Positions 8,272 to 61,186 of a DNA stretch of 64,000 nt are shown here, in pieces; position 1 is the stretch's first letter; every line of letters begins with the position of its first letter. The notes under the pieces were generated by a model that worked only from the letters and a program-made list of their open reading frames with translations, was not told the origin of the DNA and ran no database searches. The position numbers and the translations under genes are program-made. Location of the stretch: contig OZ024753.1 of the NCBI GenBank assembly GCA_964016885.1, positions 23,436,001 to 23,500,000 of the forward strand, read 5' to 3'. This DNA is from Eledone cirrhosa. Its lineage: Eukaryota.

Positions 8272-8713
8272 TAAAATAAAGTTAAATAAAAGTCAAATGA
8301 TTAAAATTTAGCTTCGTTTATTACTGCTATATATATTACAGTGACAGCCATCTTTGGCTGTGACCTCTTCAGGCAGTTTGAATTAGTATGGTATAGACAA
8401 GTACATATGTTATTTAGGTGTATGATATTGTCAATACTCTGATATGCCCAGTTCCTTGTTGGGTTGTTAATTCACTGGGGAACTGGAGTCATATGATTCC
8501 AGTTCCCCAGTGAATTAACAACCCAACAAGGAACTGGGCATATCAGAGTATTGACAATATCATACACCTAAATAACATATGTACTTGTCTATACCATACT
8601 AATTCAAACTGCCTGAAGAGGTCACAGCCAAAGATGGCTGTCACTGAAATATATATAGCAGTAATAAACGAAGCTAAATTTTAATCATTTGACTTTTATT
8701 TAACTTTATTTTA
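8272..8713. repeat. Spacerless ~440-bp palindrome with an HHR in each arm
   Basis: Arms are reverse complements around CATATG at 8490-8495, with very few mismatches. Confidence 0.93.
8608..8662 (+). ncRNA. Type I hammerhead ribozyme (mirror copy 8323-8377 on minus has GAAA>GTAA)
   Basis: ACTGC-CTGAAGA-ggt cacagcca aaga tggctgt cact-GAAA-tatata-TA-GCAGT. Confidence 0.88.
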
Positions 8714-8830
8714 CACTGCTCCGGAGAAACCAAACCAACCTGCGCACTTCGACGAGTTCTCCAGCCAGCATACTGAGGTGTTGGTATACAACCAACATAA
8801 ACTCAAAATCTGTTTATATATATATATATG

Positions 8831-11800: not shown

Positions 11801-14006
11801 CCAGTAACCGGGTCCCTGTCTATGAGTTCTGTCAAGGTTGACCATGCAGGTCACTAATTTGTGGTCTGAATAGCTAACCATGCGCATTTTTGGACAACTT
11901 AAAAAGTCCTTATCCTTAATTCTAACTAAGAACCTATCTAGGTACGACCTAGATGTTCCGCTACGATTTGTCCAAGTCCAGGTTGGCGCAGTCGGAAAAT
12001 CTAGTCGATATCTATCGGCCAGGTCAAATCGACCGATTAACCCTTTGAGGCTATTACACCCCTCTCTATCGGGACAGGCCCCTACGTAGTCCCAGCGTGC
12101 ATCTAGGATACCATTCCAGTCCCCCACTAATAGCAAGGAGCGGGACGTCCCTAGAAAAGTCTCCAGACGATCGAAGAAGTCCGGCCGCATTGACCCGAAA
12201 GGGCCGTAGGCGGTTACCAACCTAAACGCTCCGCCTTTACCACTGCCAAGGTCCAGAACCACTAGTCGTCCCTCCGGGTCCAAATGTACCATCTGTGTTG
12301 CGAGACCCAGATGTTTTTGCAGCAGAACGACAACTCCACCCCCGCCTCCGGGCTGACAGAGAGATGCGTGCATCTCAAAGTCATCAAAGGTGGGGGCCAG
12401 CTGTCGCACGTTGCTGATCCGGGCCTCGCAAATAACCATCACATCTATACGTTGTGACCTGAGGTCATTTAGAAGCATTGCTTGCTTCCAAGTTGAGCCC
12501 AGGCCACGCGCATTTAAACAGCCTACTCTTAGCATAGCCATGTTGGTGGTGAAGAGAAAAGGCACTTACCTCTCTGCGTCCCGGGTATCGGGCTGCACAA
12601 TTTCCATTGGGGTGGGGGACGGGTTGTTGGGTGGGGTGGTGGTTTGTGGAAGTGTAGGGGCATCAGTGTGTTGTGTGGTTGGGGAGTTTGGAGTTGTGTG
12701 GGTGTTTGGGGAGGGGTGGGATAGTTTTTTAGGAGGACGCGGTTAATGGGTCCGACGCAGGGGGGACCCACGTCCTCTTTAAAATTGTTTTTTAAAGTTT
12801 TATAGGTGTCCTGTGGGGCCTTAATCATTTTGAGGTGGGGGAAATCCCCTGCCTGGGTGAAGTTAGGCCCTTGTGTTTTTATTAGATTGTTGTTGTACAC
12901 AATGTTTAACAGTTTTTTGTTTCTTGTGTTTATGTATGTGTATGCATGTTTTTGTTTTTGTGTGGTGTTTTTTGTTTGCTGTTGTTGTGAGCTCTTTTGT
13001 GTTGGTGTCAGTGTTATGTTTTGGGGAGGGGTTGTTTTCATTTGTGTGTCTGAGGTGTGTTTTCTTTTTTTTCTTTTGATTGTGTGGAAGTGCTCCTCCT
13101 CGTCTGACGACGAACTAGGGTCATCTTCCGCGTTGGAGGGGAGGGGTATATTTTCGGGTTGTGTTTGCGGTACGGGTGTTTTGGAAATTGTTTTTGTTTT
13201 TTGAGTGGAGGGGATGGGTTGTACATTGTTTTGTTTTGGTTTGAGCTGTGGTGGTTGTTTTTGTAGAGGTAGTTGTGGTGATTGTGTTGGTTGTGCAGTT
13301 GCTGGTGGTGTAGGCAAGATTGGGGTTTTCTTATTAAGTTGGGGACAGACAGCCCTCAGGTGACCTCTGGTTCCGCAGAGGTAACACGAGGGCCGTCTAC
13401 CCTCAACGGTAATGTTGATGAAGGTTAGATCATCCAGTATGACGAGTTCAGGGATCTGGGCGATCCTTTCGGGCCTCATTTGAACTACAAGTTCGAGGCT
13501 CGTTCCACTGAACGCGTCACCCGATGCCTTTCCCATGGACACCAGCATGTCATCCTTCAGGTCCAGAAAACCTGTCAAAACCCACCATATGTCCATAATC
13601 GGCAGGATGGTGTGGATTTTTATTTTTTGTGTTCTTCTACACATGTACGTAGGGTAGAAGGTGTATGCGGTGGATGTGATTGGTTTGATGGACAGTTTCA
13701 CTGCTGTGTCCCTGTCCTTCATGAGAATGGATAGACTCCCGTAGAGTCTATCCTTCTGAATGAAGGTGATGTCCTTCATGACGTCTTTTAAAACCTGCTC
13801 TATCTCACTCTGTGATGGTTGAGCTGGTTTTTTACTTTTGTTCGAGATTGTCCTAAACATGACCGTGTTTAGGAGTCTCTTGCTTTTTAGTTCCGGGGGG
13901 GAATGGATTGTGAATGAACCATTTTCTCCGTACACTATATATTTTTTCGCATCTGCCAGTAGCTCCTTCGCTTTGGTTATATCTACTGGCAGATAGTCGA
14001 GGGTTT
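8831..14006 (-). mobile_element. Tx1/L1-clade LINE copy 2, 5'-truncated in ORF1, frameshifted
   Basis: ORF fragments 12529-13935, 10793-12565 and 10098-10787 are colinear with the intact copy; both ends abut (TA)n. Confidence 0.95.
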
Positions 14007-14949: not shown

Positions 14950-16846
14950 TATCAACTCTCTATCTCTCAATAGCTGTAAAAACCGCTGGACAGGTCTAAT
15001 TTCAGATAATAAGAACAAGAGGTATCGGACCAGAAATATCCTGGGGTACACCCCCCCCCCGACATACTCCACCGGCCTGGCCACTAGTATAGCCAAGCTT
15101 TTCTTTTGGGCCTTAGACAAATGCTTCCCTAGATCACACAAATACTATAAAATATTCAATAGGAATACTATCAAGTTGTCCTACTCCACAACCAGTAACA
15201 TATCTCAGAATATAGCTAAGATGAATTATAGTAGACTTAGAACAGCCCAGAGCGGGATGAGGCATGGCAGAACTAATAGCAATTCTATGCATGAACGAAC
15301 TCATGCGCGTGAGATGAGTCGGGCCAAACCAACCCCTGGGAACTTACCCATAGAGCAGACAAGAACTGAGACCCGACACCAGAGGTACCGTGGTTCCTCA
15401 GGAACTACCCCGGTCTGAAGCAGAAAATGTAATTGCAGGAACACCGTTACTTGCCTCTTGGCTGGGAAATGCCTCACCAAAAACATAGTCTACGACTGTA
15501 AGGTCTCCACTTTAGATAGAACGTTCAGGTATGTTGGGGCGACTGCCACTGAATTTAAGGATAGATGATATAATTACCGCCATACCTTTAATAGATTAGA
15601 TAAAAAAAAGTAGCACGGCGCTTTCTGAATTAGTCTGGAAGCTTAAACAACCGAATATAGAGCACCCCTTATCCTGGTCCATAGTTTGCTCAGCCCAGCC
15701 ATATAACGGCAACACAGGCGTTTGTAATTTATGTATAGCTGAAACCTTTAATATAATTAGAGGCGGCCCCCTACTAATCAATAGTAGAACTGACTTTTTC
15801 AACACCTGCCAGCATAGAACCTCGAAAACCCTCCTCAGGATTTTTAGAAAGTAACCTACCTTTAACTCCACCCTTTTTACCTTAGCCATAGAGTTCTCTC
15901 AATTAGCAAAACATAGACAATCACACACTCAGGTAGTAGACAGCTAAGATCTTTTGCGCACTTACACACAGTACTCGGTATGTTTCCACAAAGTTCTCAC
16001 AGCTGAGTGCACATTTAACACTACTTTAGAATACCTAGTCAGTAAATAGTTAGAACAATTACACACTCAGTTAAGACCGATTACGCGCATTCACCATTAC
16101 CTTAGGATACGTTAGATTATTCATCCTCTATTCATTATTTTTTTCTCACTTTCATCTAACTTATTCATGCTCATCTCACAATATATCCTTACTTACATTA
16201 CTTCTGTGTTTTTTTAAATAATACATATCAACATTTTCTTTCCATCGCACATATTATTAAACCCTTAAAATTATTCTTAATACATATTAACATTTTCTTT
16301 CCATCGCACATATTATTAAACCCTTAAATATTATTCTTAATACATATTAACAATTTCTTTTCATCGCACATATTATTAAACCCTTCAATATACAAACCTT
16401 AACTTTACATTATTTTTCTCTTCGTTAATTTTCAAATTCTTTTAATTTATACATTATCTTCCAACGGTTTTTCAACCTCTCTATGTAAAACAATATATTT
16501 TTCTCAGTTATAAAAGCTATCTCTCTCTCTCTATCAGCCATCTCTCCTCTTATCTCATCCTTCCTCATTATACTCATCCCCCTCCACTTTTTACTCTCAT
16601 CTCCTCCTCTTTTTCATCCTTTCCAAACCCCCCTCCCTCAAAAAAGTGTTTTCCCCAATATTACACATCAATTTAAAACTACTTTTCATATGTTGATTTA
16701 AAACTGCACTATCCACAAGTGTTTTTAAACTTCATATCATGTCCCCCTATTGTATCTGATGAAAACACAAATGTTATTGCATGATGATATTTGTTTTTGA
16801 AATGCGCATAATAAAATACATGGAACTCATTTAACCATCTTTTGCT

Positions 16847-16850
<4 letters not shown>
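14950..16850 (+). mobile_element. 3' fragment of a second Naiad-type PLE (thumb/linker, GIY-YIG, 3' UTR with HHR)
   Basis: FPRSHKYYKIFNRNTIKLSYSTT; after the TGA at 15416 the frame continues CNCRNTVTCLLAGKCLTKNIVY..YVGATATEFKDR..CNLCIAE..CQH to TAA at ~15853. 59-60 bp repeats x3 at ~16225-16390. Ends in (TA)n. Confidence 0.87.
16748..16818 (+). ncRNA. Type I hammerhead ribozyme in the Naiad 3' end
   Basis: TATTGTAT-CTGATGA-aaacacaaatg..tatttgttttt-GAAA-tgcgca-TA-ATAAAATA. Confidence 0.85.
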
Positions 16851-16929
<79 letters not shown>

Positions 16930-39572: not shown

Positions 39573-39712
<140 letters not shown>

Positions 39713-39988
39713 TATATACATATATATTTCTTTTATTTGCCACTAGGGCATCAAAAGTGGGACAAGTACAAAGGGGGGAGTTTACACAAAAAGGCGTCCT
39801 CAATAAGGAGGAGGCAATAACAAAATATAAAAATAAAATAAGATATAACAAAAAATAAAATTTTTAACAAAATCCTCGATAGAGAGGAGGCGCCTTGGGG
39901 GGTCGCACACACCCCCGAAAAAAGTGTGCAACCCTTCTCCTCAGGAGCACAGAGAAGGGGTGCTCCCTTGGTCTTTCATCTTCCTCAC

Positions 39989-42900
39989 CTATAGTCTGAT
40001 GTAGAGTGAAGGCCCATTCACACGGGCCATTCTCGCCACTTTCACCCATCTTTCATAGAAACGGCTGGGGTGCAGCACCTCTCTCTCCATCCTGATCCTT
40101 CTTCCGAAATGATATCGGAAGAAACGGACCAGTTGTTGGCCAGAGAGAAAGGTGCCCGACCTCAGTCCTTTCAGACGCGTCCACCATACAACCTCTTTCG
40201 CCATGGCTATTACGCACAGAAACACCGCCTCTGCTTCATCTTTGAAGGGGGGAGGCGGCTTGATCATTACAATAGACTCGGTGGTCAACCGGATCGGTCC
40301 CACCCTTGACAGCAGTTGTTCGACATAGCCCCACAGATCGGCTACGCCCGAGCAGTGTACTAATGCGTGTGCAACGGTTTCCTCGTCGCACACGCATCTG
40401 GGACAGATCTTTTTGGCGGGGTCCCTACCCGGGCGCCCGTGTCTGTAGAGCCTTTCTCGAACGGGTAAAGCCCCTCGGTAGCACTGCCAGGCCAGGGACT
40501 TCTGGAAGTTGTCCATAGGTCCCGGGCTGAATGTCCTACCGAACAGGCTGGCCAGTTCGTCCTCCTCCATGTCTAGGGCTTCTCCGAGGGCGTCGTCGCA
40601 CCTGCTGCGTACTAGCCCTCTATAGAATGTTGCGGTGGAGTCTCCACTGATAACCGGATCCGCCTGCCAGAGGGCGGTGAGCGCCTGGGCACACTCAGTG
40701 TGCCAGGCGCCCAGTTTTCTCGGTCTTTGCTTGACCCAGGATTGCAGCTCGGTGAGTGAGACGAGTCTGGGAAAGGTTCGTCTCACAAACGAGGCCCACA
40801 CCGGTTGTCCGGTGAGGAATACGTAGAGGTGCCGTAGCCTTAATGCGTGTTTACGCATCATTAGCCACGGCATCCCCAGCCCTCCTTTCGAAGGGTGTTG
40901 ACAGCAGATGGATCTCCTCACCATAGGAGCCCGCCTCTTCCAAAGGAATTGGAAGAGCGCGCGCTCCATCTTGGTGAGGGTTTCCCTTGGGCAGGGCACT
41001 ACGGTCAGGCGGTAGTAGATGACGGACGCTATGTAGGTGTTCGCCACCTCCGCCCGGCCTTTCAGGGATAGTTTGCAACTGGCCCACTTCTGGGTCAGTG
41101 CAAACACCCTGTTCGTAACCTCCGCCCAGTTTTTCTCCACCTGGAGGTCCGGTCCGAACCAGACCCCGAGCAACTTCACCGGGCCCTCCGTCCAGCGTCC
41201 GACGACGCTATCGGAGGGCATCGGTCTGCCCCTCCACGTGCCGAGTTGCAAACCGATCGACTTGTCCCGGTTCAGCTTAGCCCCTGTGAACTTTTCGTAC
41301 TCCTCCAGTAAGGTGCCGACCGCCTCGATTTCGGAGGCCGTCGACACCATTACTGTCACGTCATCGGCGTAGGCCGACACCGCTTTCCGCAATCCCGGTT
41401 CCAAAGGGATGCCCTGCAACAACTCCAACTTCCGCAGTAGTGGCTCGAGAGTCAACACATACAGAAGGGAGGAGAGAGGGCACCCTTGTCGGATGGACCG
41501 CGCGATTTTGAACGGCTCCGAGAGGTAGCCGTTCACCTTGACCCTAGAGCAGATGCGGCTGCTGTGCATAGCAGTGATCCAGCCCCTGAAAACGGGTCCG
41601 AAGCCTGCCGCCGCTAGCACCGCATCCAGGTAACCATGGTCGACCCTATCGAACGCCTTAGATTGATCCAAGTTGATCAGAGCCCCACCAAAGCCGGGTT
41701 CGTTCCCAACCCTCTCTATGATGTATCGCATGAGGTGGAGGTTGTCATGGATGGACCTGGACGGGATAGCGCATGTCTGCGCATCTCCCACCAGGTTGCC
41801 CACGACAAGCGCCAACCTCTTTGCTAGCACCTTGGCCAAAATCTGTAACTCTGTATTTAGCAGTGTTATGGGCCTGAAGTTACTTATTTCGTCCCCCTTG
41901 TTCTCGTCCTTCCTCACTAGCGTGACTACGCCCTTGGTCACAGTACAGGGAATTCTCCCGTTCTGTTGCCAGTTGCAGTAGACCGCCTCGAGGAGATCGG
42001 GGAACAAGTCCGGCATAGCTAGATATAATTCGTAAGGAAGACCATCGAGACCCGGGGATTTGCGTTTGCCGCATTGGCTCAGCACGTCCTCTATCTCAGC
42101 GGCCGAAATCGGCTCTTCGCAGGACTTCGCCTCCCTGTCCGAGAGGCGCGGCAGGCCGTCGAGGTATGGACCGAAGTCCACGTTCCCAACCGGCTCCCCG
42201 CCCCTCCCGAACAGTCGGGCAAAGTGCCTTTGAAAGGCCTCACACATCTGCTTAGGCTCAAGAATCGCCCGTCCATCCAGGTCTCGCAAAGACCGGATGG
42301 TGGATTTAGTTCCACTGTTGGCCTCTGTCACGCGGGCCCAGCTAACAGCTTTGGTCCCCTCGTTCCCTAGAGCACGTATTTTACTTCGGACAACGCAGCC
42401 TTCGTGCTTCGCGTCGAAAAACTGGCTCAAAGCCGTTCTCGACGCTAGCACTCTGGCCACGTCGCCGCTTCTAATTGCCTCTTCTACTCTATCTATTAGC
42501 TCCCTTTCCTTCCTATTCCTATCCGCAGCTAGAACCTTACTAAATTCTATCGAGACTACTCTAATCTCTCTCTTTAGAGATACCCACCACCTGCTGTTGA
42601 CGATCGCTCCAGTCAACCGTTCCTTAACTAACGTACTAATCCGATTCCTGTAGGCTCTACTTGCCGGCAAGGACAAGTTGAGCTTCCAGTAACCGGGGCC
42701 CTGTCTATGAGTTCTGTCAAGGTTGACCATGCAGGTCACTAATTTGTGGTCTGAATAGCCAACAATGCGCATTTTTGGACAACTTAAAAAGTCCTTATCC
42801 TTAATTCTAACTAAGAACCTATCTAGGTACGACCTAGATGATCCGCTACGATTTGCCCAAGTCCAGGTTGGCGCAGTCGGAAAATCTAGTCGATATCTAT

Positions 42901-43426
42901 CGGCCAGGTCAAATCGACCGATTAACCCTTTGAGGCTATTACACCCCTCTCTATCGGGGCAGGCCCCTACGTAGTCCCAGCGTGCATCTAGGATACCATT
43001 CCAGTCCCCCACTAATAGCAAGGAGCGGGACGTCCCTAGAAAAGTCTCCAGACGATGGAAGAAGTCCGGCCGCATTGACCCGAAAGGGCCGTAGGCGGCT
43101 ACCAACCTAAACGCTCCGCCTTTACCACTGCCAAGGTCCAGAACCACTAGTCGACCCTCCGGGTCCAAATGTACCATCTGTGTTGCGAGACCCAGATGTT
43201 TTTGCAGCAGAACGACAACTCCACCCCCACCTCCGGGCTGACAGAGAGATGCGTGCATCTCAAAGTCATCAAAGGTGGGGGCCAGCTGTCGCACGTTGCT
43301 GATCCGGGCCTCGCAAATAACCATCACATCTATACGTTGTGACCTGAGGTCATTTAGAAGCATTGCTTGCTTCCAAGTTGAGCCCAGGCCACGCGCGTTT
43401 AAACAGCCTACTCTTAGCATAGCCAT
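39989..43426 (-). CDS. LINE ORF2: APE endonuclease, reverse transcriptase, CCHC finger
   Basis: GCLNARG, VGDWN, YLDRF, SDH; KSPGLDG, FRPITLLN, DQSKAFDRV, RQGCPLS, YADD; CPRC..ETVAHALVHC. First ATG at 43426; frame open from 43450. Confidence 0.96.
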   Translation of the reverse strand: MAMLRVGCLNARGLGSTWKQAMLLNDLRSQRIDVMVICEARISNVRQLAPTFDDFEMHASLCQPGGGGGVVVLLQKHLGLATQMVHLDPEGRLVVLDLGSGKGGAFRLVAAYGPFGSMRPDFFHRLETFLGTSRSLLLVGDWNGILDARWDYVGACPDREGCNSLKGLIGRFDLADRYRLDFPTAPTWTWANRSGSSRSYLDRFLVRIKDKDFLSCPKMRIVGYSDHKLVTCMVNLDRTHRQGPGYWKLNLSLPASRAYRNRISTLVKERLTGAIVNSRWWVSLKREIRVVSIEFSKVLAADRNRKERELIDRVEEAIRSGDVARVLASRTALSQFFDAKHEGCVVRSKIRALGNEGTKAVSWARVTEANSGTKSTIRSLRDLDGRAILEPKQMCEAFQRHFARLFGRGGEPVGNVDFGPYLDGLPRLSDREAKSCEEPISAAEIEDVLSQCGKRKSPGLDGLPYELYLAMPDLFPDLLEAVYCNWQQNGRIPCTVTKGVVTLVRKDENKGDEISNFRPITLLNTELQILAKVLAKRLALVVGNLVGDAQTCAIPSRSIHDNLHLMRYIIERVGNEPGFGGALINLDQSKAFDRVDHGYLDAVLAAAGFGPVFRGWITAMHSSRICSRVKVNGYLSEPFKIARSIRQGCPLSSLLYVLTLEPLLRKLELLQGIPLEPGLRKAVSAYADDVTVMVSTASEIEAVGTLLEEYEKFTGAKLNRDKSIGLQLGTWRGRPMPSDSVVGRWTEGPVKLLGVWFGPDLQVEKNWAEVTNRVFALTQKWASCKLSLKGRAEVANTYIASVIYYRLTVVPCPRETLTKMERALFQFLWKRRAPMVRRSICCQHPSKGGLGMPWLMMRKHALRLRHLYVFLTGQPVWASFVRRTFPRLVSLTELQSWVKQRPRKLGAWHTECAQALTALWQADPVISGDSTATFYRGLVRSRCDDALGEALDMEEDELASLFGRTFSPGPMDNFQKSLAWQCYRGALPVRERLYRHGRPGRDPAKKICPRCVCDEETVAHALVHCSGVADLWGYVEQLLSRVGPIRLTTESIVMIKPPPPFKDEAEAVFLCVIAMAKEVVWWTRLKGLRSGTFLSGQQLVRFFRYHFGRRIRMEREVLHPSRFYERWVKVARMARVNGPSLYIRL

Positions 43427-43450
43427 GTTGGTGGTGAAGAGAAAAGGCAC

Positions 43451-45229
43451 TTACCTCTCTGCGTCCCGGGTATCGGGCTGCACAATTTCCATTAGGGTGG
43501 GGGATGGGTTGTTGGGTGGGGTGGTGGTTTGTGGAAGTGTGGGGGCATCAGTGTGTTGTGTGGTTGGGGAGCTTGGAGTTGTGTGGGTGTTTGGGGAGGG
43601 GGTGGGATAGTTTTTTAGGAGGACGCGGTTAATGGGCCCGACGCAGGGGGGACCCACGTCCTCTTTAAAATTGTTTTTTAAAGTTTTATAGGTGTCCTGT
43701 GGGGCCTTAATCATTTTGAGGTGGGGGAAATCCCCTGCCTGGGTGAAGTTAGGCCCTTGTGTTTTTATTAGATTGTTGTTGTACACAATGTTTAACAGTT
43801 TTTTGTTTCTTGTATTTATGTATGTGTATGCATGTTTTTGTTTTTGTGTGGTGTTTTTTGTTTGCTGTTGTGAGCTCTTTTGTGTTGGTGTCAGTGTTAT
43901 GTTTTGGGGAGGGTTTTTTTTCATTTGTGTGTCTGAGGTGTGTTTTCTTTTTTTTCTTTTGATTGTGTGGAAGTGCTCCTCCTCGTCTGACGACGAACTA
44001 GGGTCATCTTCCGCGTTGGAGGGGAGGGGTATATTTTCGGGTTGTGTTTGCGGTACGGGTGTTTTGGAAATTGTTTTTGTTTTTTGAGTGGAGGGGATGG
44101 GTTGGACATTGTTTTGTTTTGGTTTGAGCTGTGGTGGTTGTTTTTGTAGTGGTAGTTGTGGTGATTGTGTTGGTTGTGCAGCTGTTGGTGGTGTAGGCAG
44201 GATTGGGGTTTTCTTATTAAGTTGGGGACAGACAGCCCTCAGGTGACCTCTGGTTCCGCAGAGGTAACACGAGGGCCGTCTACCCTCAACGGTAATGTTG
44301 ATGAAGGTTAGATCATCCAGTATGACGCGTTCAGGGATCTGGGCGATCCTTTCGGGCCTCATTTGAACTACAAGTTCGAGGCTCGTTCCACTGAACGCGT
44401 CACCCGATGCCTTTCCCATGGACACCAGCATGTCATCCTCCAGGTCCAGAAAACCTGTCAAAACCCACCATATGTCCATAATCGGCAGGATGGTGTGGAT
44501 TTTTATTTTTTGTGTTCTTCTACCCATGTACGTAGGGTAGAAGGTGTATGCGGTGGATGTGATTGGTTTGATGGACAGTTTCACTGCTGTGTCCCTGTCC
44601 TTCATGAGAATGGATAGACTCCCGTAGAGTCTATCCTTCTGAATGAAGGTGATGTCCTTCATGACGTCTTTTAAAACCAGCTCTATCTCGCTCTGTGATG
44701 GTTGAGCTGGTTTTTTACTTTTGTTCGAGATTGTCCTAAACATGACCGTGTTTAGGAGTCTCTGGCTTTTTAGTTCCGGGGGGGAATGGATTGTGAATGA
44801 ACCATTTTCCCCGTACACTATATATTTTTTCGCATCCGCCAGTAGCTCCTTCGCTTTTGTTATATCTACTGGCAGATAGTCGAGGGTTTTCCTTGTCGTC
44901 TCGGCGAAGGAGAAATTTTGTTTGTTTGTGTTGTTGTTGTCGTTGGTGGTGTTGTTGTTATCATTGTTGTTGTTGTCACCGTTATTGGTCTTGTTGTTGT
45001 TATTGTTATTGGTGTTGTTTTCGTCCGTCGCATTGTTGTTGTTGCTGTTGCCGCTGGTTCTTTGAGTTGTTACCATGGCAACGTCAAGTTGTCGGTTAAC
45101 AGGTGGAGAGAATTCTTCCTCTGGCTGACCTTTCTTCTTGACCTCTGCTACTGTGACAGTGGCAGGGGGAAGCTGTAAGTTCATCTTCCCCTTTCCTCCT
45201 TCGAATTTTGGTGAAGAAGCTTCGGCCAT
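43451..45229 (-). CDS. LINE ORF1 (gag-like, CCHC zinc knuckle)
   Basis: 592 aa; CYLCGTRGHLRAVC; N-rich and P/Q/T/K-rich linkers; immediately upstream of ORF2. Confidence 0.92.
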   Translation of the reverse strand: MAEASSPKFEGGKGKMNLQLPPATVTVAEVKKKGQPEEEFSPPVNRQLDVAMVTTQRTSGNSNNNNATDENNTNNNNNNKTNNGDNNNNDNNNTTNDNNNTNKQNFSFAETTRKTLDYLPVDITKAKELLADAKKYIVYGENGSFTIHSPPELKSQRLLNTVMFRTISNKSKKPAQPSQSEIELVLKDVMKDITFIQKDRLYGSLSILMKDRDTAVKLSIKPITSTAYTFYPTYMGRRTQKIKIHTILPIMDIWWVLTGFLDLEDDMLVSMGKASGDAFSGTSLELVVQMRPERIAQIPERVILDDLTFINITVEGRRPSCYLCGTRGHLRAVCPQLNKKTPILPTPPTAAQPTQSPQLPLQKQPPQLKPKQNNVQPIPSTQKTKTISKTPVPQTQPENIPLPSNAEDDPSSSSDEEEHFHTIKRKKRKHTSDTQMKKNPPQNITLTPTQKSSQQQTKNTTQKQKHAYTYINTRNKKLLNIVYNNNLIKTQGPNFTQAGDFPHLKMIKAPQDTYKTLKNNFKEDVGPPCVGPINRVLLKNYPTPSPNTHTTPSSPTTQHTDAPTLPQTTTPPNNPSPTLMEIVQPDTRDAER

Positions 45230-50062: not shown

Positions 50063-50198
50063 TAATACACAGACACACATACTTAATTTTACATATATAC
50101 AGATATATATACATACATGTATATATATATATATATATACATGAATGTATATATATATCTGTATATATGTAAAATTAAGTATGTGTGTCTGTGTATTA
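50063..50198. repeat. Short palindrome centred on (TA)n
   Basis: TAATACACAGACACACATACTTAATTTTAC..GTAAAATTAAGTATGTGTGTCTGTGTATTA. Confidence 0.85.
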
Positions 50199-50936
50199 CC
50201 TATACGGGCCTACATCTTACGACCCATTTTCATCAAACTTTACAGTCTCATAGATTAGTCATCTGAATATTTAGCCACTTTACGATAGTTCTTCGAAAAA
50301 CACATTACATTTTTCCTCTCTCTTTTTGTTATTCAAACATTCACACATCTTTCAACTAAAATAATGGATCTCACACAAAATAATATATAATTTTCTATAT
50401 ATATTTGGGAGTAAATCTTTCATGTAATTTAATGATTAACAAACAAAATTGGAGTTATCTTTCCTTTCTCAATCGTGCAAACATAAACATGATGTTTGAT
50501 AATCTGTATAGCTTTGCTAAATTAAAAATATTCTGAAAACATTTTCAATGCTGAACAAAATTTTTGAATCCACAAATTGTTCTACTCTCACAACTTGAAC
50601 CACCTATTTTTAAGTAAAATACAAAATCAACTTCCTTTGTAACTCGTATTTGATATATAAACAACTAATACATACGCAATTTATTAATATATATATAGAT
50701 ATTTATATACATATATCGTTTCTGAATTTGTTTAGCAAGATTCTTTATCTGAAATCGTGTGTTGAAACCGATATTGTTATACTTTGGGAGGGTCATGTTG
50801 CTAATAAGAAACACACGCACCAGTTGCTTTCACTTCAATTTATTATATATTTATAAATTTATAAATTTACAAATCTACAAGCTTATAAATTTCTGGTTGG
50901 TTGGTTGGTTCCACAACCAGATAGTTGTTTATATAT

Positions 50937-50981
50937 AGTCATAGTCCTTTCGTCACACACTCTGTGACCTCTTCAGTGACT
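50937..50981 (-). ncRNA. Minimal type I hammerhead ribozyme in the PLE 3' end
   Basis: Minus strand: AGTCA-CTGAAGA-g gtcaca gagtg tgtgac-GAAA-ggac-TA-TGACT. Confidence 0.8.
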
Positions 50982-51878
50982 GGGGATTCCTTTCTTTGTT
51001 TCTGTGCCTTTCCTTTCTTCTATCCTACGCCATTTTGTTTCTGTGTGTGTGTTGTGTGCTCAGTTTGCGCATGCGCCACATCCGGGTGTCTGTGTGTGTT
51101 TGTGTTCATTTATCTATTTGTTTATTTATTTATTTATTTATTGTTGGTTGGTTGTTTGTTCTATGTGTGTGTGTGTTTTCATTTTGTCCTGTGTGTGTTT
51201 TCATTTTGTCCTTAATTGTAAGTTGTGATGTTGCTGTTCCACTCATATTTTCTATTTAATTTTGCTTGTAATTCTTTTATGCTTACTGCCTCTGTAATTT
51301 GCCTAAACATTGCATCTTTTCTGTGTGTGGATTCTATTTTTATTTCTATGTTCTCTAATCTACCCCTGTGTTCTATCTTAGCATGTTGGTAGAGAACAGA
51401 TGATTCTTTATTATCTTGAAGGTCTCGCCAGTGTTCATTTATTCGTTCCCCTATACTACGAGCTGTCTCACCTATGTACACTATATTTTTGTTTCTACAT
51501 TGTCCTTCAGTACATCTTATGCTATACACTACATTTCTAGTTTTACAGTTAATATGGGGGCTTATTTTACAGGTTATACATTTCTTATCTATACATGAGG
51601 GTCTTTGGAACGGGTATGTCTTGCTAATAAGTGTTTTTACGGAGGTACCTGGTCTTTCTACTATCTTAATATTGAGTTTATGTTTATTTAGGGCCCTTTT
51701 AAATTTGTAGGCTAGTTCGCCTCTAGGGGTTGTATTGATGAACATTACACTCTAGTATTTATTGCTATCATACCATGAGTTTATTCTATTGACCTTGTTC
51801 CTAGTTCTTTCTATTCTATTCCAAAATTTGCTCCTATACAAAGGGCAGGTCCCATTTATGTCATTATTTACCATTTTT

Positions 51879-52059
51879 GGTGGGTTGGTAGTATCGGTAG
51901 AGGGTCGGACGCCATGCTTTCTAGCATAGTTACGTCCCTTTACGATCTGAGTTCAAATCCCGCCGAGGTTGACTTTGCCTTTCATCCTTACGGGGTCGAT
52001 AAAATAAAGTACCAGTGAGGCACTGGGTAGTTGCTGGCCTTGTGCCTAAAGTAGAAACA
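51879..52059 (+). mobile_element. tRNA-derived SINE
   Basis: A-box-like TGGTAGTATCGG, B-box GAGTTCAAATCC, core GACTTTGCCTTTCATCCTTACGGGGTCGATAAAAT; 16-bp target duplication ATTATTTACCATTTTT (51863-51878, 52060-52075) splitting the PLE ORF. Confidence 0.87.
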
Positions 52060-52969
52060 ATTATTTACCATTTTTTCCCATTTGGTTCTGGCTCCTTTAT
52101 ACACTCTGATTCTATCTCTCTGATTGTAGCCAGAGAACTGCATACGGTGGATGAAGTGTTGTATGTGTCTCTCTAGTTCTTCGGGGTTGCACATGCGGGA
52201 CACATTTCTCATCACCCGTACCAAATCCGCAATCAGTATGTTGATTTTGGTATGGTCCGAAATGGCCAAGTTTCGGTGGATCAGATGTTTGGAAGTCATG
52301 GGTTTGGCATAATGGGAATGGAGGATTTGTTTTTGGTTGTTAATGGTATCTAACCAGAGCTCTGTGTCTAGTACAGGTAATCGATGGTTGGGGTGTCTAC
52401 TTGGGTAGTCTATAGTAACTCTAATGCTCTGGTGGATGGAGTTTGCTATTTGCTGGATGCTTTCCATTGTGTTTTTCTATAGTTCCTGACTGTTCTTTAG
52501 TGGGGGTGTCTTAACTACGATGTTTATATCATCTACATAGTGTGTTTCTTATTGGCAACATGACCCTCCCAAAGTATAACAATATATACATATAACCTAT
52601 CGTAATGTAATAAGATAAAAATACTTACAACCATAATTCTTCATATAATCTAATTGTTTATATATACAATATTATAACTCATAATGTAGGTAAATAATTT
52701 TTTCCCCCCAAATTAACGTAAATGCTAGCTCTTCTTCCTTTCTCTTCTTTCCAATGCATACAATAACTTATCATAATTATTTAAATTTTCCATAGCGTCT
52801 AAAATAACATTTTTTTCAGCCCTTTTACCTAAACCTCATTTGCATACTCATCTTAATAATTTTAAATATCTGACTTTTCTTCTCTTATCCCTTCACTATC
52901 CAGGGATAACTTGAACCGTTAAGGTATATTCTCCTTGGTTATGTCAAAGTTTATAAAACACACTTCGTA

Positions 52970-54094: not shown

Positions 54095-54383
54095 GTATAT
54101 ATATATGTGTGTGTATATGTATATATGTATATGTATATATATATATGTATATGTATATATATATATATGTATAGAAGAAATTAAAAGATGGTTAAAAAAG
54201 TTCCATATATATTATTATGCGCATTTCAAAACCAAATATCACCTGGGAGGATAATTACGTTTTCTTCAGATAAAATAAGGTAACATGATATGATGCCTAA
54301 AACCACTTGTGAACAAGAGAGTGTCCAGTAAACGTATGACAAAAAAATATAAAATATATGTATATATATATGTATATATATAT

Positions 54384-55881
54384 ACAATATATTTAGAAAC
54401 ACACAGATACATGCGGACACACACATATACATGAATGCATCCACATCCAACCGTGAGTTAATGGTGCCAACCTTACCGATGTTGCTCAATGAATGACTGG
54501 GACAGACCAATCCGGTTGAACTAGACTGAACCAGTATCAGAGTTAAAAATACATTATGAAGAGAGAAGGAACATTTAGATATAATTAGTAATAAAATGTA
54601 TCATACCTAAACTGCTCCTAGATTCCTCGACTACGTAGTTTCGTGGCATAAACAAAAAAAGTACATCATAAAGATATAGAGCCTTTGCGAGGTCTGCCGA
54701 CTTATCAAGAGGATACCTCATTTTACTAGCTTCAAGAACGCGTCTACACGACGTGAGAAAGAATCCCAAAAGGCGGAGGGGGAGATAGTCACGCGATATA
54801 ATGGTCGAGAAACAGAGCTAAGCCTCTTATAACCCCGAAGAAAATACCACGGAGGCGGAGGGGTATTTATATCGAAGCCGTAGAAGAGGTGGTAAAGGAC
54901 GCGAGAAGTATGAGTAATGGCAGCTTTCCAGCAGTCACCACACTTCAAAGATTACTCGACCAGAGGGAGTTATGAACAATATATTTAGAAACACACAGAT
55001 ACATACGGACACACACATATACATGATTGCATCCACATCCAACCGTTAGTTAATGGTGCCAACCTTACCGATGTTGCTCAATGAATGACTGGGACAGACC
55101 AATCCGGTTGAACTAGACTGAACCAGTATCAGAGTTAATCCTTGATAAGTCGGCAGACCTCGCAAAGGCTCTATATCTTTATGATGTACTGTTTTTGTTT
55201 ATGCCACGAAACTGCGTAGTCGAGGAATCTAGGAGCAGTTTAGGTATTACTAATTATATCTAAATGTTCCTTCTCTCTTCATAATGTATTTTTAACTCTG
55301 ATACTGGTTCAGTCGAGTTCAACCGGATTGGTCTGTCCCAGTCATTCATTGAGCAGCATCGGTAAGGTTGGCACCATTAACTCACGGTTGGATGTGGATG
55401 CATTCATGTATATGTGTGTGTCCGCATGTATCTGTGTGTTTCTAAATATATTGTTCATAATTCCCTCTGGTCGAGTAATCTTTGAAGTGTCGTGACTGCT
55501 GGAAAGCTGCCATTACTCATACTTCTCGTCTCCTTTACCACCTCTTCTACGGCTTCGATATAAATACCCCCTCCGCCTCCGTGGTATTTTCTTCGGGGTT
55601 ATAAGAGGCTTAGCTCTGTTTCTCGACCGTTATATCGCGTGACTATCTCCCCCTCCGCCTTTTGGGATTCTTTCTCACGTCGTGTAGACGCGTTCTTGAA
55701 GCTAGTAAAATGAGGTATCCTCTTGATAAGTCGGCAGACCTCGCAAAGGCTCTATATCTTTATGATGTACTGTTTTTGTTTATGCCACGAAACTACGTAG
55801 TCGAGGAATCTAGGAGCAGTTTAGGTATGATACATTTTATTAATAATTATATCTAAATGTTCCTTCTCTCTTCATAATGTA
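54384..55881. mobile_element. Retrozyme-like locus: ~590-bp non-coding monomer, ~1.27 copies on minus joined head-to-head to ~1.27 copies on plus
   Basis: Period ~592 on the left (54385/54977) and ~581 on the right (55142/55723, small deletion); three HHRs; both outer ends in TA repeats. Confidence 0.88.
55718..55807 (+). ncRNA. Hammerhead ribozyme with U3-A8 core (copies ~55140-55226 plus, 54624-54713 minus)
   Basis: TCCTC-TTGATAA-gt c ggca..tgcc ac-GAAA-ctacgtag-TC-GAGGA. Confidence 0.82.
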
Positions 55882-55917
55882 TATATATATATGTATATAT
55901 GTATATGTATGTATATA

Positions 55918-55960
<43 letters not shown>

Positions 55961-56030
55961 ATGTATATATGTATATGTATATGTATATATATATATGTAT
56001 ATGTATATATATGTATATATATGTATATAT

Positions 56031-56068
<38 letters not shown>

Positions 56069-56810
56069 TCAGGTTATCAATAATGTAGTGATAATATATC
56101 GTTACGTTAGAGATGAACAGCGTACGTGCAGGTTTGCTCAACGAGTATAAATTATATTCCGGAGAAATGTAGAAAGGATGAATATAAAATGAAAGTGCTT
56201 TTGTTAAAAAAGGAATTTATTAGGTATTGACATATGTTTCTGTAACAGACCGAATACCTATGTATCGCTGCTTGCGTAATCATATAATGTTAGCAAGTAT
56301 TCGATAGCAAATGTATAATCAGTTGTCACTTCTTCAGAGATTTTGGATAAACTGGATAAAATCAGAAAAATTGAAGTATTTATATTAGTAAAAGAGGAAG
56401 GAACAGAGGGGATAGAATATGACAGATGGTAAAATAATTTACTGCTAAACAAGTATATAATGGGTTTTTAATGAGAATACCATGAGTAAATCTAAATAAG
56501 AATTTTGGGGGTGCCGATTTTAATCTCTACTTGACCAACTGGACAGTGGACAGGGCTGGTCATTTGGTGCAGTAGTATTAATCATAAAGTGTCAATTGGG
56601 GAAGGGGGAGATTTCGATTGCTACTAAATAACATCAATGCTAGTGGTCAGCTGGTATTTGCTCTAGGGAATTGAATCAAAAAATCAGAAATCTCATTTTA
56701 TCTATAGCAGTTTGTATTAAAAGGTAAATAATAGAAGAGTTGATAGAATTAAGACTAATAAAGAATGTTCATATCTATTTTGACAATCAAACGGGGATAG
56801 AGACAGGCGT

Positions 56811-58950
56811 TCAATCCTGGTAGTATTTATAATATGAAAATGTAGATTTTAAGCGATGGTTACAGTATAACGATCGCTCTATTCTGTTATTTAATAAAAT
56901 GTTTTTGGATTTCATAATACAAAATAATTCTACATTACATAATCTACAAAATTCCTGTCCATTGGAATATGGGGGGGCAGCCGCTATTATATCCCATTTT
57001 AGGTGAAATTGTTGGTTATTTTCACGCAGCTGCCAAGCCTTGTCTGCGAGTGTTGTTACATAACGCTGGTTTTCATGTTTTATCGAATAACGATGTCTAT
57101 AAAGGCGTGATTTAAAGGAGGTGGCTGTAGATCCCACATAGTACCACTTCTGTCTATCCGATTCGATAGTACATTTGTATACGATGTTGCGTTCAAGACA
57201 CTGGTTGTTCAACGGACACATTCCTGGTTGGACACAGTTGCAATTACAATTTTGCGTTGTTGTATTGCCATGGATGGGTTGATGAGGTTGCTTATGTAGA
57301 ACAGGATGTTGTTTGTTGTTTTGTGATGTTATAGCTAATGTTTTACGTGTATTGTTATGTGTTGGAAGGCGTTTATACAACCGTTTTGCGTTAAGCATTT
57401 TTATATGTTGTTCAATATTAGGGGCGGTTGAATATGAAAGTCGGATGGTGTTAGGGTTTAAGATTTTATTATATTTATGTGATGTTGGAAAGTGTTTTCT
57501 AACTAATCGAAAGAATTTTGAGGGTAGATTGGTTTTAATAGATTTGTTATAGACCGGGTTGTACCAGATATACTCCTTACATCGCCTTCTGTTTGGTGGT
57601 GTGCGACTATTATTGTGTCTATTGCGGTAGTGTATGTATGGTGGTGATTCTGTGCTATTTCTACTCCTATGTGATTTATTTTGGGTGTTTTGGTGATCAT
57701 TGACTATATACTCTATATTATCTAGGTGACCGGCTTTCCTAAGTGCATCATCATAATACTCGGCATGTTCTTTGAAGGTTTGTTGGTTGGACGATAGGCG
57801 GGAGATTCTAAGAGAAACATTTCTAGGGATGGATTTAATTATAGAGAGTGGATGGTTAGAACTCGTATTTACATATTTAAGGTTCTCATTTAGTTTATGG
57901 AACGGTTTAATCGTATCTGTATTGAGATTGAAAGTAACATCAAGGAAATTGACCTCTTTGAGGTTATATTCAAATGTAATATTTAATCCTAGTTCTTTAA
58001 AAAGTTTTCTGATATTTTTACGCATCCTTTCTAAATTCTGGTTATTCATATTCTTAACTAATAGGAGCGCATCGTCACGGTAAATTCCACCGTGGAGATC
58101 CTTGAATTTTCCTTGTAATCTGTGGGTGATATAAATTCCCACAAGATCTGTTACCTCCGCCGAATCATTAGAACCCATAGTGATATCAAAATTAGAAGGT
58201 CTATCTTTGCGAACCCAGTAGCTATCATCGAATTTAACTATAGTTTTTCTCGCTTCCATAATAATTTTAATTTCAGCATCCGTAAGGTCGGAATTATCCT
58301 TAGCGAACGAAAGAGCTTCATGTAGAGTATCAGGTGAAATTGAGGAATAATATTCATCAATATCAAACTCAATAAATTTTGATTTTTTCTTATCAGTAAT
58401 GTTGTTAAACCATCTTATTGCTTCATGAGTGTTACCCCATAGTTTAATCTCTACTTTAACCTTAACTTGGGGGATAATTCTGTCTAGTATATATTTGCTA
58501 ATTTTACCTATATCTGATTTAGAGGGGCATATAAGTCTAATATTAGGGTTAGTATCGAAGTTTACCTTGTGGTCCTTCAGGTTGAAGGATGGTATAGCTG
58601 GTGTTAAGGGTTGCGTTCTATCGTCAATACAAAGTTTTTTAACAATATCACATGCCGAGTTGTTGATGTTTTTAAGTGTGGCTTCATTAGTTTTCCTGTA
58701 TTTTTTATGCAATTCCTTACGGATGAAGTTATTGTAAGTGTCCACATCCATGGTATATACGTTTGATGTTTTGTCTGCTCTAACAATAACTCCATTGGCG
58801 TTTTTTAGATTATTGAGCAGTGCCGTGATGTCATTCTGTAGTTTATTGTTCTTACGTTTTGTAAATTTGATCTCCATGATCATATCCATTAGGTCTTGTT
58901 CAAATGCATCCAAAAGTGGGTTTGAGGGTGGGTTCTTGTAAGATTTAAAT
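56811..58950 (-). CDS. Naiad-type PLE ORF (RT + GIY-YIG), open but lacking the N-terminus
   Basis: ADKTSN, LKDHK..RLICPSKSDIG, FDIDEYYSSI, DITMGSNDSAE, GIYRDD, FLDVTF, SNHP, NCNC..CPL..CL..IVY..YVGST..FKSR, CRLC..E..LN..CNH. Confidence 0.93.
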
Positions 58951-58957
58951 TATTCAG

Positions 58958-60514
58958 TTTGATATTGATGAATATTATTCCTCAATTTCACCTGATACTC
59001 TACATGAAGCTCTTTCGTTCGCTAAGGATAATTCCGACCTTACGGATGCTGAAATTAAAATTATTATGGAAGCGAGAAAAACTATAGTTAAATTCGATGA
59101 TAGCTACTGGGTTCGCAAAGATAGACCTTCTAATTTTGATATCACTATGGGTTCTAATGATTCGGCGGAGGTAACAGATCTTGTGGGAATTTATATCACC
59201 CACAGATTACAAGGAAAATTCAAGGATCTCCACGGTGGAATTTACCGTGACGATGCGCTCCTATTAGTTAAGAATATGAATAACCAGAATTTAGAAAGGA
59301 TGCGTAAAAATATCAGAAAACTTTTTAAAGAACTAGGATTAAATATTACATTTGAATATAACCTCAAAGAGGTCAATTTCCTTGATGTTACTTTCAATCT
59401 CAATACAGATACGATTAAACCGTTCCATAAACTAAATGAGAACCTTAAATATGTAAATACGAGTTCTAACCATCCACTCTCTATAATTAAATCCATCCCT
59501 AGAAATGTTTCTCTTAGAATCTCCCGCCTATCGTCCAACCAACAAACCTTCAAAGAACATGCCGAGTATTATGATGATGCACTTAGGAAAGCCGGTCACC
59601 TAGATAATATAGAGTATATAGTCAATGATCACCAAAACACCCAAAATAAATCACATAGGAGTAGAAATAGCACAGAATCACCACCATACATACACTACCG
59701 CAATAGACACAATAATAGTCGCACACCACCAAACAGAAGGCGATGTAAGGAGTATATCTGGTACAACTCGGTCTATAACAAATCTATTAAAACCAATCTA
59801 CCCTCAAAATTCTTTCGATTAGTTAGAAAACACTTTCCAACATCACATAAATATAATAAAATCTTAAACCCTAACACCATCCGACTTTCATATTCAACCG
59901 CCCCTAATATTGAACAACATATAAAAATGCTTAACGCAAAACGGTTGTATAAACGCCTTCCAACACATAACAATACACGTAAAACATTAGCTATAACATC
60001 ACAAAACAACAAACAACATCCTGTTCTACATAAGCAACCTCATCAACCCATCCATGGCAATACAACAACGCAAAATTGTAATTGCAACTGTGTCCAACCA
60101 GGAATGTGTCCGTTGAACAACCAGTGTCTTGAACGCAACATCGTATACAAATGTACTATCGAATCGGATAGACAGAAGTGGTACTATGTGGGATCTACAG
60201 CCACCTCCTTTAAATCACGCCTTTATAGACATCGTTATTCGATAAAACATGAAAACCAGCGTTATGTAACAACACTCGCAGACAAGGCTTGGCAGCTGCG
60301 TGAAAATAACCAACAATTTCACCTAAAATGGGATATAATAGCGGCTGCCCCCCCATATTCCAATGGACAGGAATTTTGTAGATTATGTAATGTAGAATTA
60401 TTTTGTATTATGAAATCCAAAAACATTTTATTAAATAACAGAATAGAGCGATCGTTATACTGTAACCATCGCTTAAAATCTACATTTTCATATTATAAAT
60501 ACTACCAGGATTGA
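58958..60514 (+). CDS. Inverted shorter copy of the Naiad ORF (from RT motif A)
   Basis: Same protein except one visible change (WYNPVY vs WYNSVY). Confidence 0.9.
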   Translation, partial: FDIDEYYSSISPDTLHEALSFAKDNSDLTDAEIKIIMEARKTIVKFDDSYWVRKDRPSNFDITMGSNDSAEVTDLVGIYITHRLQGKFKDLHGGIYRDDALLLVKNMNNQNLERMRKNIRKLFKELGLNITFEYNLKEVNFLDVTFNLNTDTIKPFHKLNENLKYVNTSSNHPLSIIKSIPRNVSLRISRLSSNQQTFKEHAEYYDDALRKAGHLDNIEYIVNDHQNTQNKSHRSRNSTESPPYIHYRNRHNNSRTPPNRRRCKEYIWYNSVYNKSIKTNLPSKFFRLVRKHFPTSHKYNKILNPNTIRLSYSTAPNIEQHIKMLNAKRLYKRLPTHNNTRKTLAITSQNNKQHPVLHKQPHQPIHGNTTTQNCNCNCVQPGMCPLNNQCLERNIVYKCTIESDRQKWYYVGSTATSFKSRLYRHRYSIKHENQRYVTTLADKAWQLRENNQQFHLKWDIIAAAPPYSNGQEFCRLCNVELFCIMKSKNILLNNRIERSLYCNHRLKSTFSYYKYYQD

Positions 60515-60984
60515 ACGCCTGTCTCTATCCCCGTTTGATTGTCAAAATAGATATGAACATTCTTTATTAGTCTTAATTCTATCAACTCTTCTATTATTTA
60601 CCTTTTAATACAAACTGCTATAGATAAAATGAGATTTCTGATTTTTTGATTCAATTCCCTAGAGCAAATACCAGCTGACCACTAGCATTGATGTTATTTA
60701 GTAGCAATCGAAATCTCCCCCTTCCCCAATTGACACTTTATGATTAATACTACTGCACCAAATGACCAGCCCTGTCCACTGTCCAGTTGGTCAAGTAGAG
60801 ATTAAAATCGGCACCCCCAAAATTCTTATTTAGATTTACTCATGGTATTCTCATTAAAAACCCATTATATACTTGTTTAGCAGTAAATTATTTTACCATC
60901 TGTCATATTCTATCCCCTCTGTTCCTTCCTCTTTTACTAATATAAATACTTCAATTTTTCTGATTTTATCCAGTTTATCCAAAA

Positions 60985-61100
60985 TCTCTGAAGAAGTGAC
61001 AACTGATTATACATTTGCTATCGAATACTTGCTAACATTATATGATTACGCAAGCAGCGATACATAGGTATTCGGTCTGTTACAGAAACATATGTCAATA
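60985..61100 (+). ncRNA. Hammerhead-like motif in the Naiad 3' end, weak stem I (mirror 56225-56340)
   Basis: CTGAAGA-a gtgaca actga..tcggt c tgttac a-GAAA-catatg-TC; flanks pair poorly. Confidence 0.6.
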
Positions 61101-61153
61101 CCTAATAAATTCCTTTTTTAACAAAAGCACTTTCATTTTATATTCATCCTTTC

Positions 61154-61186
<33 letters not shown>

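Follow-up and report, generated by a model that had tools for sequence, protein, structure and literature searches.

The window analyzed here is a 64,000-nt stretch of the Eledone cirrhosa genome and harbors, at positions 54384 to 55882, a single insertion of an abundant, non-coding 592-nt hammerhead repeat family. The insertion consists of two 5′-truncated arms arranged head-to-head. The left arm (54384..55138, minus strand) is 755 nt long, equivalent to 1.28 monomers, and runs from monomer position 83 to 245 plus one turn; the right arm (55141..55882, plus strand) spans 742 nt, or 1.25 monomers, from position 512 to 80 plus one turn, and has a 12-nt deletion in its first unit. At the junction, 2 nt (55139..55140) lie between the arms. 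The 592-nt monomer is numbered with position 1 at the predicted GTC/GAGGA cleavage site. The left arm ends at the distal of two fixed sites, B (about 243), and thus carries a tail of 163 to 165 nt (54384..54548, minus strand), which extends from the fixed 3′ end A (80) to B (243). The 3′ end of the right arm is the proximal fixed site, A (80), and this end of the insertion has no tail. (TA)n-type microsatellites form the target on both sides, one at the outer flank of the left arm (54354..54383) and one (55883..56060) that is shared with a neighboring Hydra element. The arms are 97.8% identical across 591 nt, and an ORF scan of the doubled monomer revealed no reading frame longer than 83 codons.

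The preliminary description of this DNA had proposed head-to-head arms of a non-coding monomer with one hammerhead per monomer. Our analyses confirm the two arms of a 592-nt unit within (TA)n and, by motif scan and fold, the single hammerhead as a sequence motif. It had also placed the 3′ end of the right arm where the left arm starts in monomer coordinates, and this proved correct to within 2-3 nt: the right arm ends in ..TTCATAATGTAT (position 80), 2-3 nt before the left-arm 5′ start, TTAACTCTGATA (position 83).

The motif scan and fold identify a type I hammerhead with the core TTGATAA..GAAA..GTC, in which U3-A8 replaces C3-G8; its helix I has 5 bp, the helix II region spans 59 nt and helix III is palindromic. 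U3-A8 covariants have been described in the hammerheads of Penelope-like elements (PLEs), which also have a short palindromic helix III and are thought to require dimers (PMC4209133). The complete motif of the right arm (55718..55807, plus strand) comprises helix I (55718-55722 with 55803-55807), the TTGATAA core (55723-55729), the long helix II (55730-55788) and GAAA (55789-55792), followed by the palindromic helix III and a predicted cleavage point after 55802. A second copy in the same arm (55141..55226) lost the 5′ strand of helix I at the junction, harbors one change in helix III and is probably inactive. The left arm contains one complete motif (54624..54713, minus strand), with cleavage predicted after 54629. 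Since the two complete motifs lie on opposite strands and the third lacks helix I, the locus itself would probably be unable to release a monomer. Rfam returned no match at its gathering score, hammerhead included, anywhere in the 64-kb window.

A DNA search of the E. cirrhosa genome (3.0 Gb) revealed many copies, 97-99% identical to the unit, distributed over many contigs. An exact ribozyme 21-mer matched 7,545 times genome-wide, and its reversed control 0 times; because the first 100 matches correspond to about 50 loci, the genome contains roughly 3,500-4,000 loci. The units are joined head-to-tail, with the longest arms reaching 5.4 units. The family is also present in contigs of two sequencing runs from one study, which may be the source of the assembly, and loose TA ends are seen there at A and B. 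We examined 162 distinct insertions, a few percent of the family and skewed to one subfamily, that were gathered by best full-length matches, an internal 26-mer, an A-end motif and a B-end motif. We discarded 12 loci as redundant and one copy as a duplicate before counting. Five complex loci (L014, L046, L083, L087 and L204) were kept outside the pair count, the haplotype-mismatch analysis omits L014, L046 and L087, and the 69-pair continuity and A>G analyses omit L014, L046, L087, L083, L171 and L176. Among these, L083 (2497-6516) has 2 kb of other repeats between its A and B arms and haplotypes that are mixed among the units of each arm. At L014 (1286-2844), both arms jump repeatedly from monomer position 144 back to 563, which looks like repeated copying of a 174-nt sub-unit across the cleavage site.

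Mapping of start and end points on the monomer showed that the 5′ ends of the arms are spread across the unit in these 162 insertions. Their 3′ ends are fixed: position 80 (site A) is the exact end of 107 of 202 arms, and most others stop at 241-250 (site B). The two sites lie 163 nt apart in the monomer, and TA-rich DNA follows the 3′ end in 198 of the 202. Thus, the scattered permutation of ends that had been suggested as a check for a circular source is found for 5′ ends and not for 3′ ends. Among 74 simple head-to-head pairs, 70 are A/B, 1 is A/A, none is B/B and 3 are unclassifiable. The A/A locus is a composite, in which the outer units belong to another haplotype and the inner units match the opposite arm. 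The pairing is the same regardless of how a locus was found, with the partner being A in 19/19 classifiable loci found via the B end (B in 0) and B in 17/18 found via the A end (A in 1); the one-A-one-B rule is therefore not a search artifact. Both sites also serve as the end of single arms (A in 52 and B in 24, n = 76), with ascertainment favoring A. These fixed two-site 3′ ends are the Penelope "tail" pattern and, together with the inverted 5′-truncated copy and the AT-rich target, are features of mobilization by a PLE. In our assessment, the family provides genomic evidence for two-site, two-strand priming in a PLE-mobilized non-LTR retrozyme. In the array at L192 (6225-9531), two outer units of a different haplotype are joined in register with an older insertion, possibly the result of homing or recombination into a copy already in place.

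The preliminary description had further suggested that two DNA ends were primed on one RNA, and the family agrees with this, both in its 70/74 A/B pairs and in the haplotypes of paired arms. Across 43 polymorphic non-CpG columns, the paired arms of one insertion mismatch in 41 of 1467 polymorphic cells (2.8%), the tandem units inside one arm in 89 of 2817 (3.2%) and arms from different insertions in 31%. As the latter figure mixes subfamilies, each partner was also ranked against all foreign arms; for the 32 pairs ranked, 7.5% of foreign arms on average fit as well as the true partner. Of the rare alleles, 20/181 are present in both arms. Hence, paired arms were probably copied from one template. 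In the studied copy the partner mismatches in 2/43 columns and 13% of foreign arms are equally good, so the case for one template rests on the family. Alternatively, one dominant source locus could have supplied two RNAs of the same haplotype, or conversion between the arms could later have made them alike.

Identical haplotypes and an inverted layout would also be accounted for if a cDNA begun at site B folded back or templated itself, with the copy resolved at site A. The A arm is contained in the B arm in 21/63 pairs, as such copying would have it, and junction overlaps of 1-7 nt are common. However, in 29/63 pairs, including the studied copy, neither arm is nested in the other, which excludes fold-back copying for those pairs, barring routine large deletions at the junction, and single arms with an A end are common. 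We therefore consider fold-back a very improbable origin for the inverted arms. The preliminary description had favored the twin priming of L1, in which both ends of a break prime on one RNA, giving rise to an inversion (Ostertag and Kazazian 2001, as described in PMC2246262). In that process one 3′ primer and a chance internal primer, annealed by microhomology, would yield two contiguous, non-overlapping pieces. The studied copy, continuous to within 2-3 nt, has this appearance, annealing to (TA)n ends would be possible for the A and B sites, both being TA-like, and B-arm 5′ ends are over-represented at site A: they lie at most 10 nt from it in 8/63 pairs, where 2.2 are expected (p = 0.002 under a uniform null and 0.014 under a smoothed length null, studied copy included). 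With the studied copy removed and later pairs added, 7/69 pairs are continuous (p = 0.011, uniform). Yet the other 62 of the 69 are discontinuous and many overlap, so end-to-end continuity belongs to a minority of pairs, is not the defining geometry, and does not make this L1-style twin priming. Moreover, the second site is fixed rather than variable, both arms exceed one unit in 8/63 pairs, and single arms end at either site (as counted above). L1 twin priming as such is thus, in our estimation, slightly less probable still than fold-back; its geometry is largely refuted and survives as a collision sub-case of the PLE model.

Within the PLE model, continuity is plausibly a minority outcome in which the RT primed at B meets the primer at A. 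In the other direction, A arms do not stall at site B (1/63 pairs within 10 nt). The effect at site A is modest in size, the sequence there is AT-rich, and 4/76 single arms also begin at 72-75; AT-rich microhomology is an alternative cause.

As for the form of the RNA, arms pass through the predicted cleavage site 230 times with 0 stops within 3 nt of it (2.5 expected), and the columns of the cleavage junction are conserved and free of indels. These data rule against a cut linear monomer as the template, a candidate that was rejected because no 5′ ends pile up at the site. The earlier suggestion of a circle or an uncut concatemer therefore stands, as an either/or. The longest arrays are close to clonal, with 2 variable columns in an insertion of 4.9 + 2.7 units, 4 in an array of 4.4 units and 9 in one of 5.4 units and its partner. 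RNA editing by adenosine deamination is a source of A>G changes. On the ribozyme strand, alleles common to all copies of an insertion include 14 A>G and 7 T>C (rate ratio 3.6, p = 0.004), an excess that would fit the editing of one RNA that was read repeatedly; unit-specific alleles include 25 A>G and 31 T>C (p = 0.10), and the contrast between the two classes is not significant (Fisher p = 0.12). Speaking against a circle, the units of some arrays differ at family-polymorphic columns (47/1558, compared with 1.0% elsewhere), with 27 of the 47 in two loci. The period-2 differences expected of a dimer circle were not clean in L020 or L149.

The same two-site, two-strand priming by a PLE could have used an uncut linear multimeric transcript, with the ribozyme silent or irrelevant and no circle involved. 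Read-through of the cleavage site and common haplotypes are equally compatible with such a template, and B arms that stop at A after 755-773 nt (the studied copy and L190) fit primers that lie one unit apart. Multimeric sources do exist, as at least two intact motifs are present in 41 arms, and the ribozyme fold is predicted to be disfavored in a circular monomer, where the pairing probability is 0 for helix I and 0.01 for helix III (0.1 for helix III in the isolated motif). In published experiments, ribozyme mutants of a PLE insert normally in vitro and unprocessed RNA is the dominant in vitro substrate (PMC11167929), and 8/9 Xenopus retrozyme dimers remained uncleaved in vitro (10.64898/2026.07.22.740005). 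However, a linear multimer could never give rise to a daughter that exceeds its source in length, whereas near-clonal arrays of 4.4-5.4 units are found in both of the main haplotype groups. The A>G excess in alleles common to all units, not clearly seen in unit-specific ones, and the near-invariance of the ribozyme core over about 130 insertions, although the family is young, also speak against it. We therefore favor the circle, clearly though not decisively, and regard the linear multimer as unlikely while leaving it a real share of the probability. A further reading takes the unit to be the pseudo-LTR (pLTR) of a longer coding PLE whose copies are merely 5′-truncated. Vertebrate retrozymes are related to PLE pLTRs (10.64898/2026.07.22.740005), and the layout matches that of a coding Hydra family. 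Against this, arms pass from unit to unit for up to 5.4 turns, and TA-like DNA is found at the 5′ junction of 73/83 single arms. The preliminary description had named such a pseudo-LTR as grounds for refuting its own reading, and no coding PLE leads into the sampled arms: no ORF runs into the arm at 34 loci found via the B end (one of them unreadable upstream), and the only arm with a same-sense Hydra ORF just upstream joins the 3′ end of another family. Of all the readings weighed here we give the pseudo-LTR the least credence. A comparison of the unit with 26 PLE 3′ regions gave scores of 27-89 among the matches listed, which is like the shuffle range. A coding parent that shares part of the unit is possible and, if it exists, would leave the mechanism unchanged; none was found among the sampled loci, and a candidate, L173, was rejected on its junction to the 3′ end of another family.

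Adjoining the insertion is a separate one (56061..61158), of a Hydra-clade Penelope-like element. It too consists of two head-to-head 5′-truncated arms (56061-58950, minus strand; 58947-61158, plus strand), of which just one carries a tail (101 nt). Its protein places the RT first and a GIY-YIG-like endonuclease last and contains RWK, DKT at 128, CxCx5C, CxxC and CxH, and YVG at 673 of 781 aa. C-terminal endonucleases, RWK, DKT, CxCx5C, CxxC/CxH and insertion into (TA)n are marks of the Hydra clade, as summarized in section 11 of PMC8557442; the same paper describes Naiads as having an N-terminal endonuclease and DKA and as being without a canonical hammerhead. The element, called a Naiad in the preliminary description and put forward there as the helper, is thus not a Naiad, and its C-terminal endonuclease, its DKT and its other clade motifs assign it to the Hydra type. 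Pfam gave no RT or GIY-YIG match for its ORF, so the assignment rests on motifs; by these the neighbor is classed as Hydra-like, with an atypical pLTR. In that pLTR, core halves were seen without a helix I, and the motif scan picked up no canonical hammerhead. The halves lie about 95 nt apart, though hammerheads have been called universal in Hydra. A decayed Hydra copy elsewhere (L213) harbors a U3-A8-type core in its 3′ UTR. The 64-kb window also contains an element that may be Neptune-like.

The neighboring family is young, with 99.6% identical copies, a 3,115-nt period and intact 781-aa frames. Its ends, too, are fixed at two sites, separated by 101 nt, and the arms use one site each in 11/11 head-to-head pairs with both ends visible (three loci that run off the edge, one unscored and one tail-to-tail locus are excluded). 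The 592-nt unit shows no similarity to its non-coding region (score 61, shuffle mean 60.6), and the two are adjacent because they share a (TA)n target; the neighbor is therefore not borne out as a helper by sequence, and no helper with sequence similarity to the unit was found. Our leading guess for the class of the helper, by features only, is the Hydra-clade elements.

Collectively, the dispersed family, the fixing of its 3′ ends at A and B, the use of one A and one B site per pair, the same-haplotype arms, the clonal long arrays, the read-through of the cleavage site and the (TA)n targets lead us to consider it likely that a PLE RT-endonuclease wrote the studied insertion into a (TA)n break, priming each end at one site on the same RNA, probably a circle. 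In the route that we envisage, transcription reading through an array that has two ribozymes would give an RNA that is cut and ligated to a monomer circle. A PLE protein, predicted to be dimeric, would bind the tail region and cut both (TA)n strands, whereupon one cDNA would start at B and the other at A. Both RTs would proceed 5′-ward by strand displacement, often beyond one full turn, and the truncated 5′ ends of the cDNAs would be joined via an overlap of 0-7 nt. Should one cDNA fail, the product would be a single arm whose end lies at A or at B. The B-primed RT may halt at the A primer in about a tenth of pairs, producing continuity as in the studied copy. In vitro, a PLE uses two RT start sites, both strands are cut and extended, and a dimer is predicted (PMC11167929). 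That study reports no difference between top and bottom strands, a bulk result in which a per-event rule would not show. Here, one site per end is recorded in 70/71 classifiable pairs of the 592-nt family and in 11/11 of the Hydra family. Whether tail and inverted 5′ copy are products of one mechanism, namely a PLE dimer acting on a single RNA, with one start site per break end and RTs that roll past each other by strand displacement on a ribozyme-made circle, now and then colliding at the proximal site, is a broader proposal that we hold to be evenly balanced.

In its tandem units, its hammerhead motif in each unit, its non-coding nature without an apparent LTR-retrozyme layout and its dispersal, the family resembles known non-LTR retrozymes, and the retrozyme-like character proposed earlier is supported at the sequence level; the unit would accordingly be classed, in our judgment, as a PLE-mobilized non-LTR retrozyme. 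Metazoan non-LTR retrozymes likewise are non-coding tandem units of a few hundred bases and low GC (PMC7229834; 10.64898/2026.07.22.740005), with one type I hammerhead motif per unit in dispersed, high-copy families, and a circular template and a PLE helper have been proposed for them (PMC7229834; PMC4209133; 10.64898/2026.07.22.740005). However, there are differences. The 592-nt unit is longer than the 170-400-nt RNAs of PMC7229834, though within the 51-972 bp range of 10.64898/2026.07.22.740005, and it has a U3-A8 core and a 59-nt helix II region. In addition, the texts consulted on metazoan retrozymes do not mention ends fixed at two sites or arms placed head-to-head, and the word "inverted" has 0 occurrences in PMC7229834.

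The likeness to PLEs is in the manner of insertion. EN+ PLEs show 5′ truncation, partial tandems and inverted 5′-truncated copies, carry a tail at just one end, start reverse transcription at two sites and insert into AT-rich targets (PMC8557442; PMC11167929), whereas the 592-nt unit has no ORF and a tail of 163 nt instead of 30-40 nt. One-end tails and inverted 5′ copies are therefore already known for PLEs (PMC8557442); what differs from the reports of EN+ PLEs, in the texts available, is that the one-end tail is counted (70/71 classifiable pairs) and tied to a common template. With Hydra-clade PLEs the unit shares (TA)n insertion and the two-end rule seen in the neighboring family, despite the lack of sequence similarity to the non-coding region of that neighbor. 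Naiads share the (TA)n bias, inverted copies and tails (PMC8557442). L1 twin priming, proposed earlier for the 592-nt family, shares an inversion made from both break ends primed on one RNA, in contrast to which this family has a fixed second site, no poly(A), and arms that usually overlap or leave gaps and can exceed one unit.

We thus judge this to be a new 592-nt retrozyme family with the footprint of a PLE, although the family or the rule may already be recorded in supplements, Repbase, Dfam or older Penelope papers. A literature search of main texts found no count of a one-site-per-arm rule and no link of both arms to one template. The results bear on how retrozymes enter genomes and on the origin of the optional tail and the inverted 5′ copy of Penelope-like insertions. 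The one-site-per-arm rule, the common template and the collision signal lead to a specific prediction of one RNA, two start sites and two DNA ends. An in vitro test would be straightforward, since the start sites on the 592-nt RNA are mapped and the genome also carries a family of near-identical Hydra elements with intact ORFs of 781 aa.

The searches also brought up other repeats. A second repeat (L214, L215, L233 and G000:C1:200829736-200830089) contains a compact U3-A8 hammerhead-like motif; it occurs in inverted pairs as well as with a 319-nt period, and it may represent another retrozyme family. A frequent U3-A8-like pattern at L217-L231 was rejected as chance, being antisense to the long ORF of another repeat; these loci belong to an abundant LINE-like repeat in head-to-tail arrays with a period of about 5.8-6.2 kb. 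In the window, hammerhead-like motifs with a canonical core lie in short repeats at 8613, 17118, 17285, 45714, 48280, 54269 and 15833-16860, and one of them terminates the 3′ region of a further Hydra-like ORF. A broken PLE at 50065-52476 has a GIY-YIG Pfam match; its 3′ region harbors a minimal hammerhead core, and its end, unlike that of the 592-nt family, is A-rich. Finally, a non-LTR retrotransposon with two ORFs and a length of about 5.2 kb is present twice, at 8815-14006 and 39711-45229, in copies that are 95% identical.
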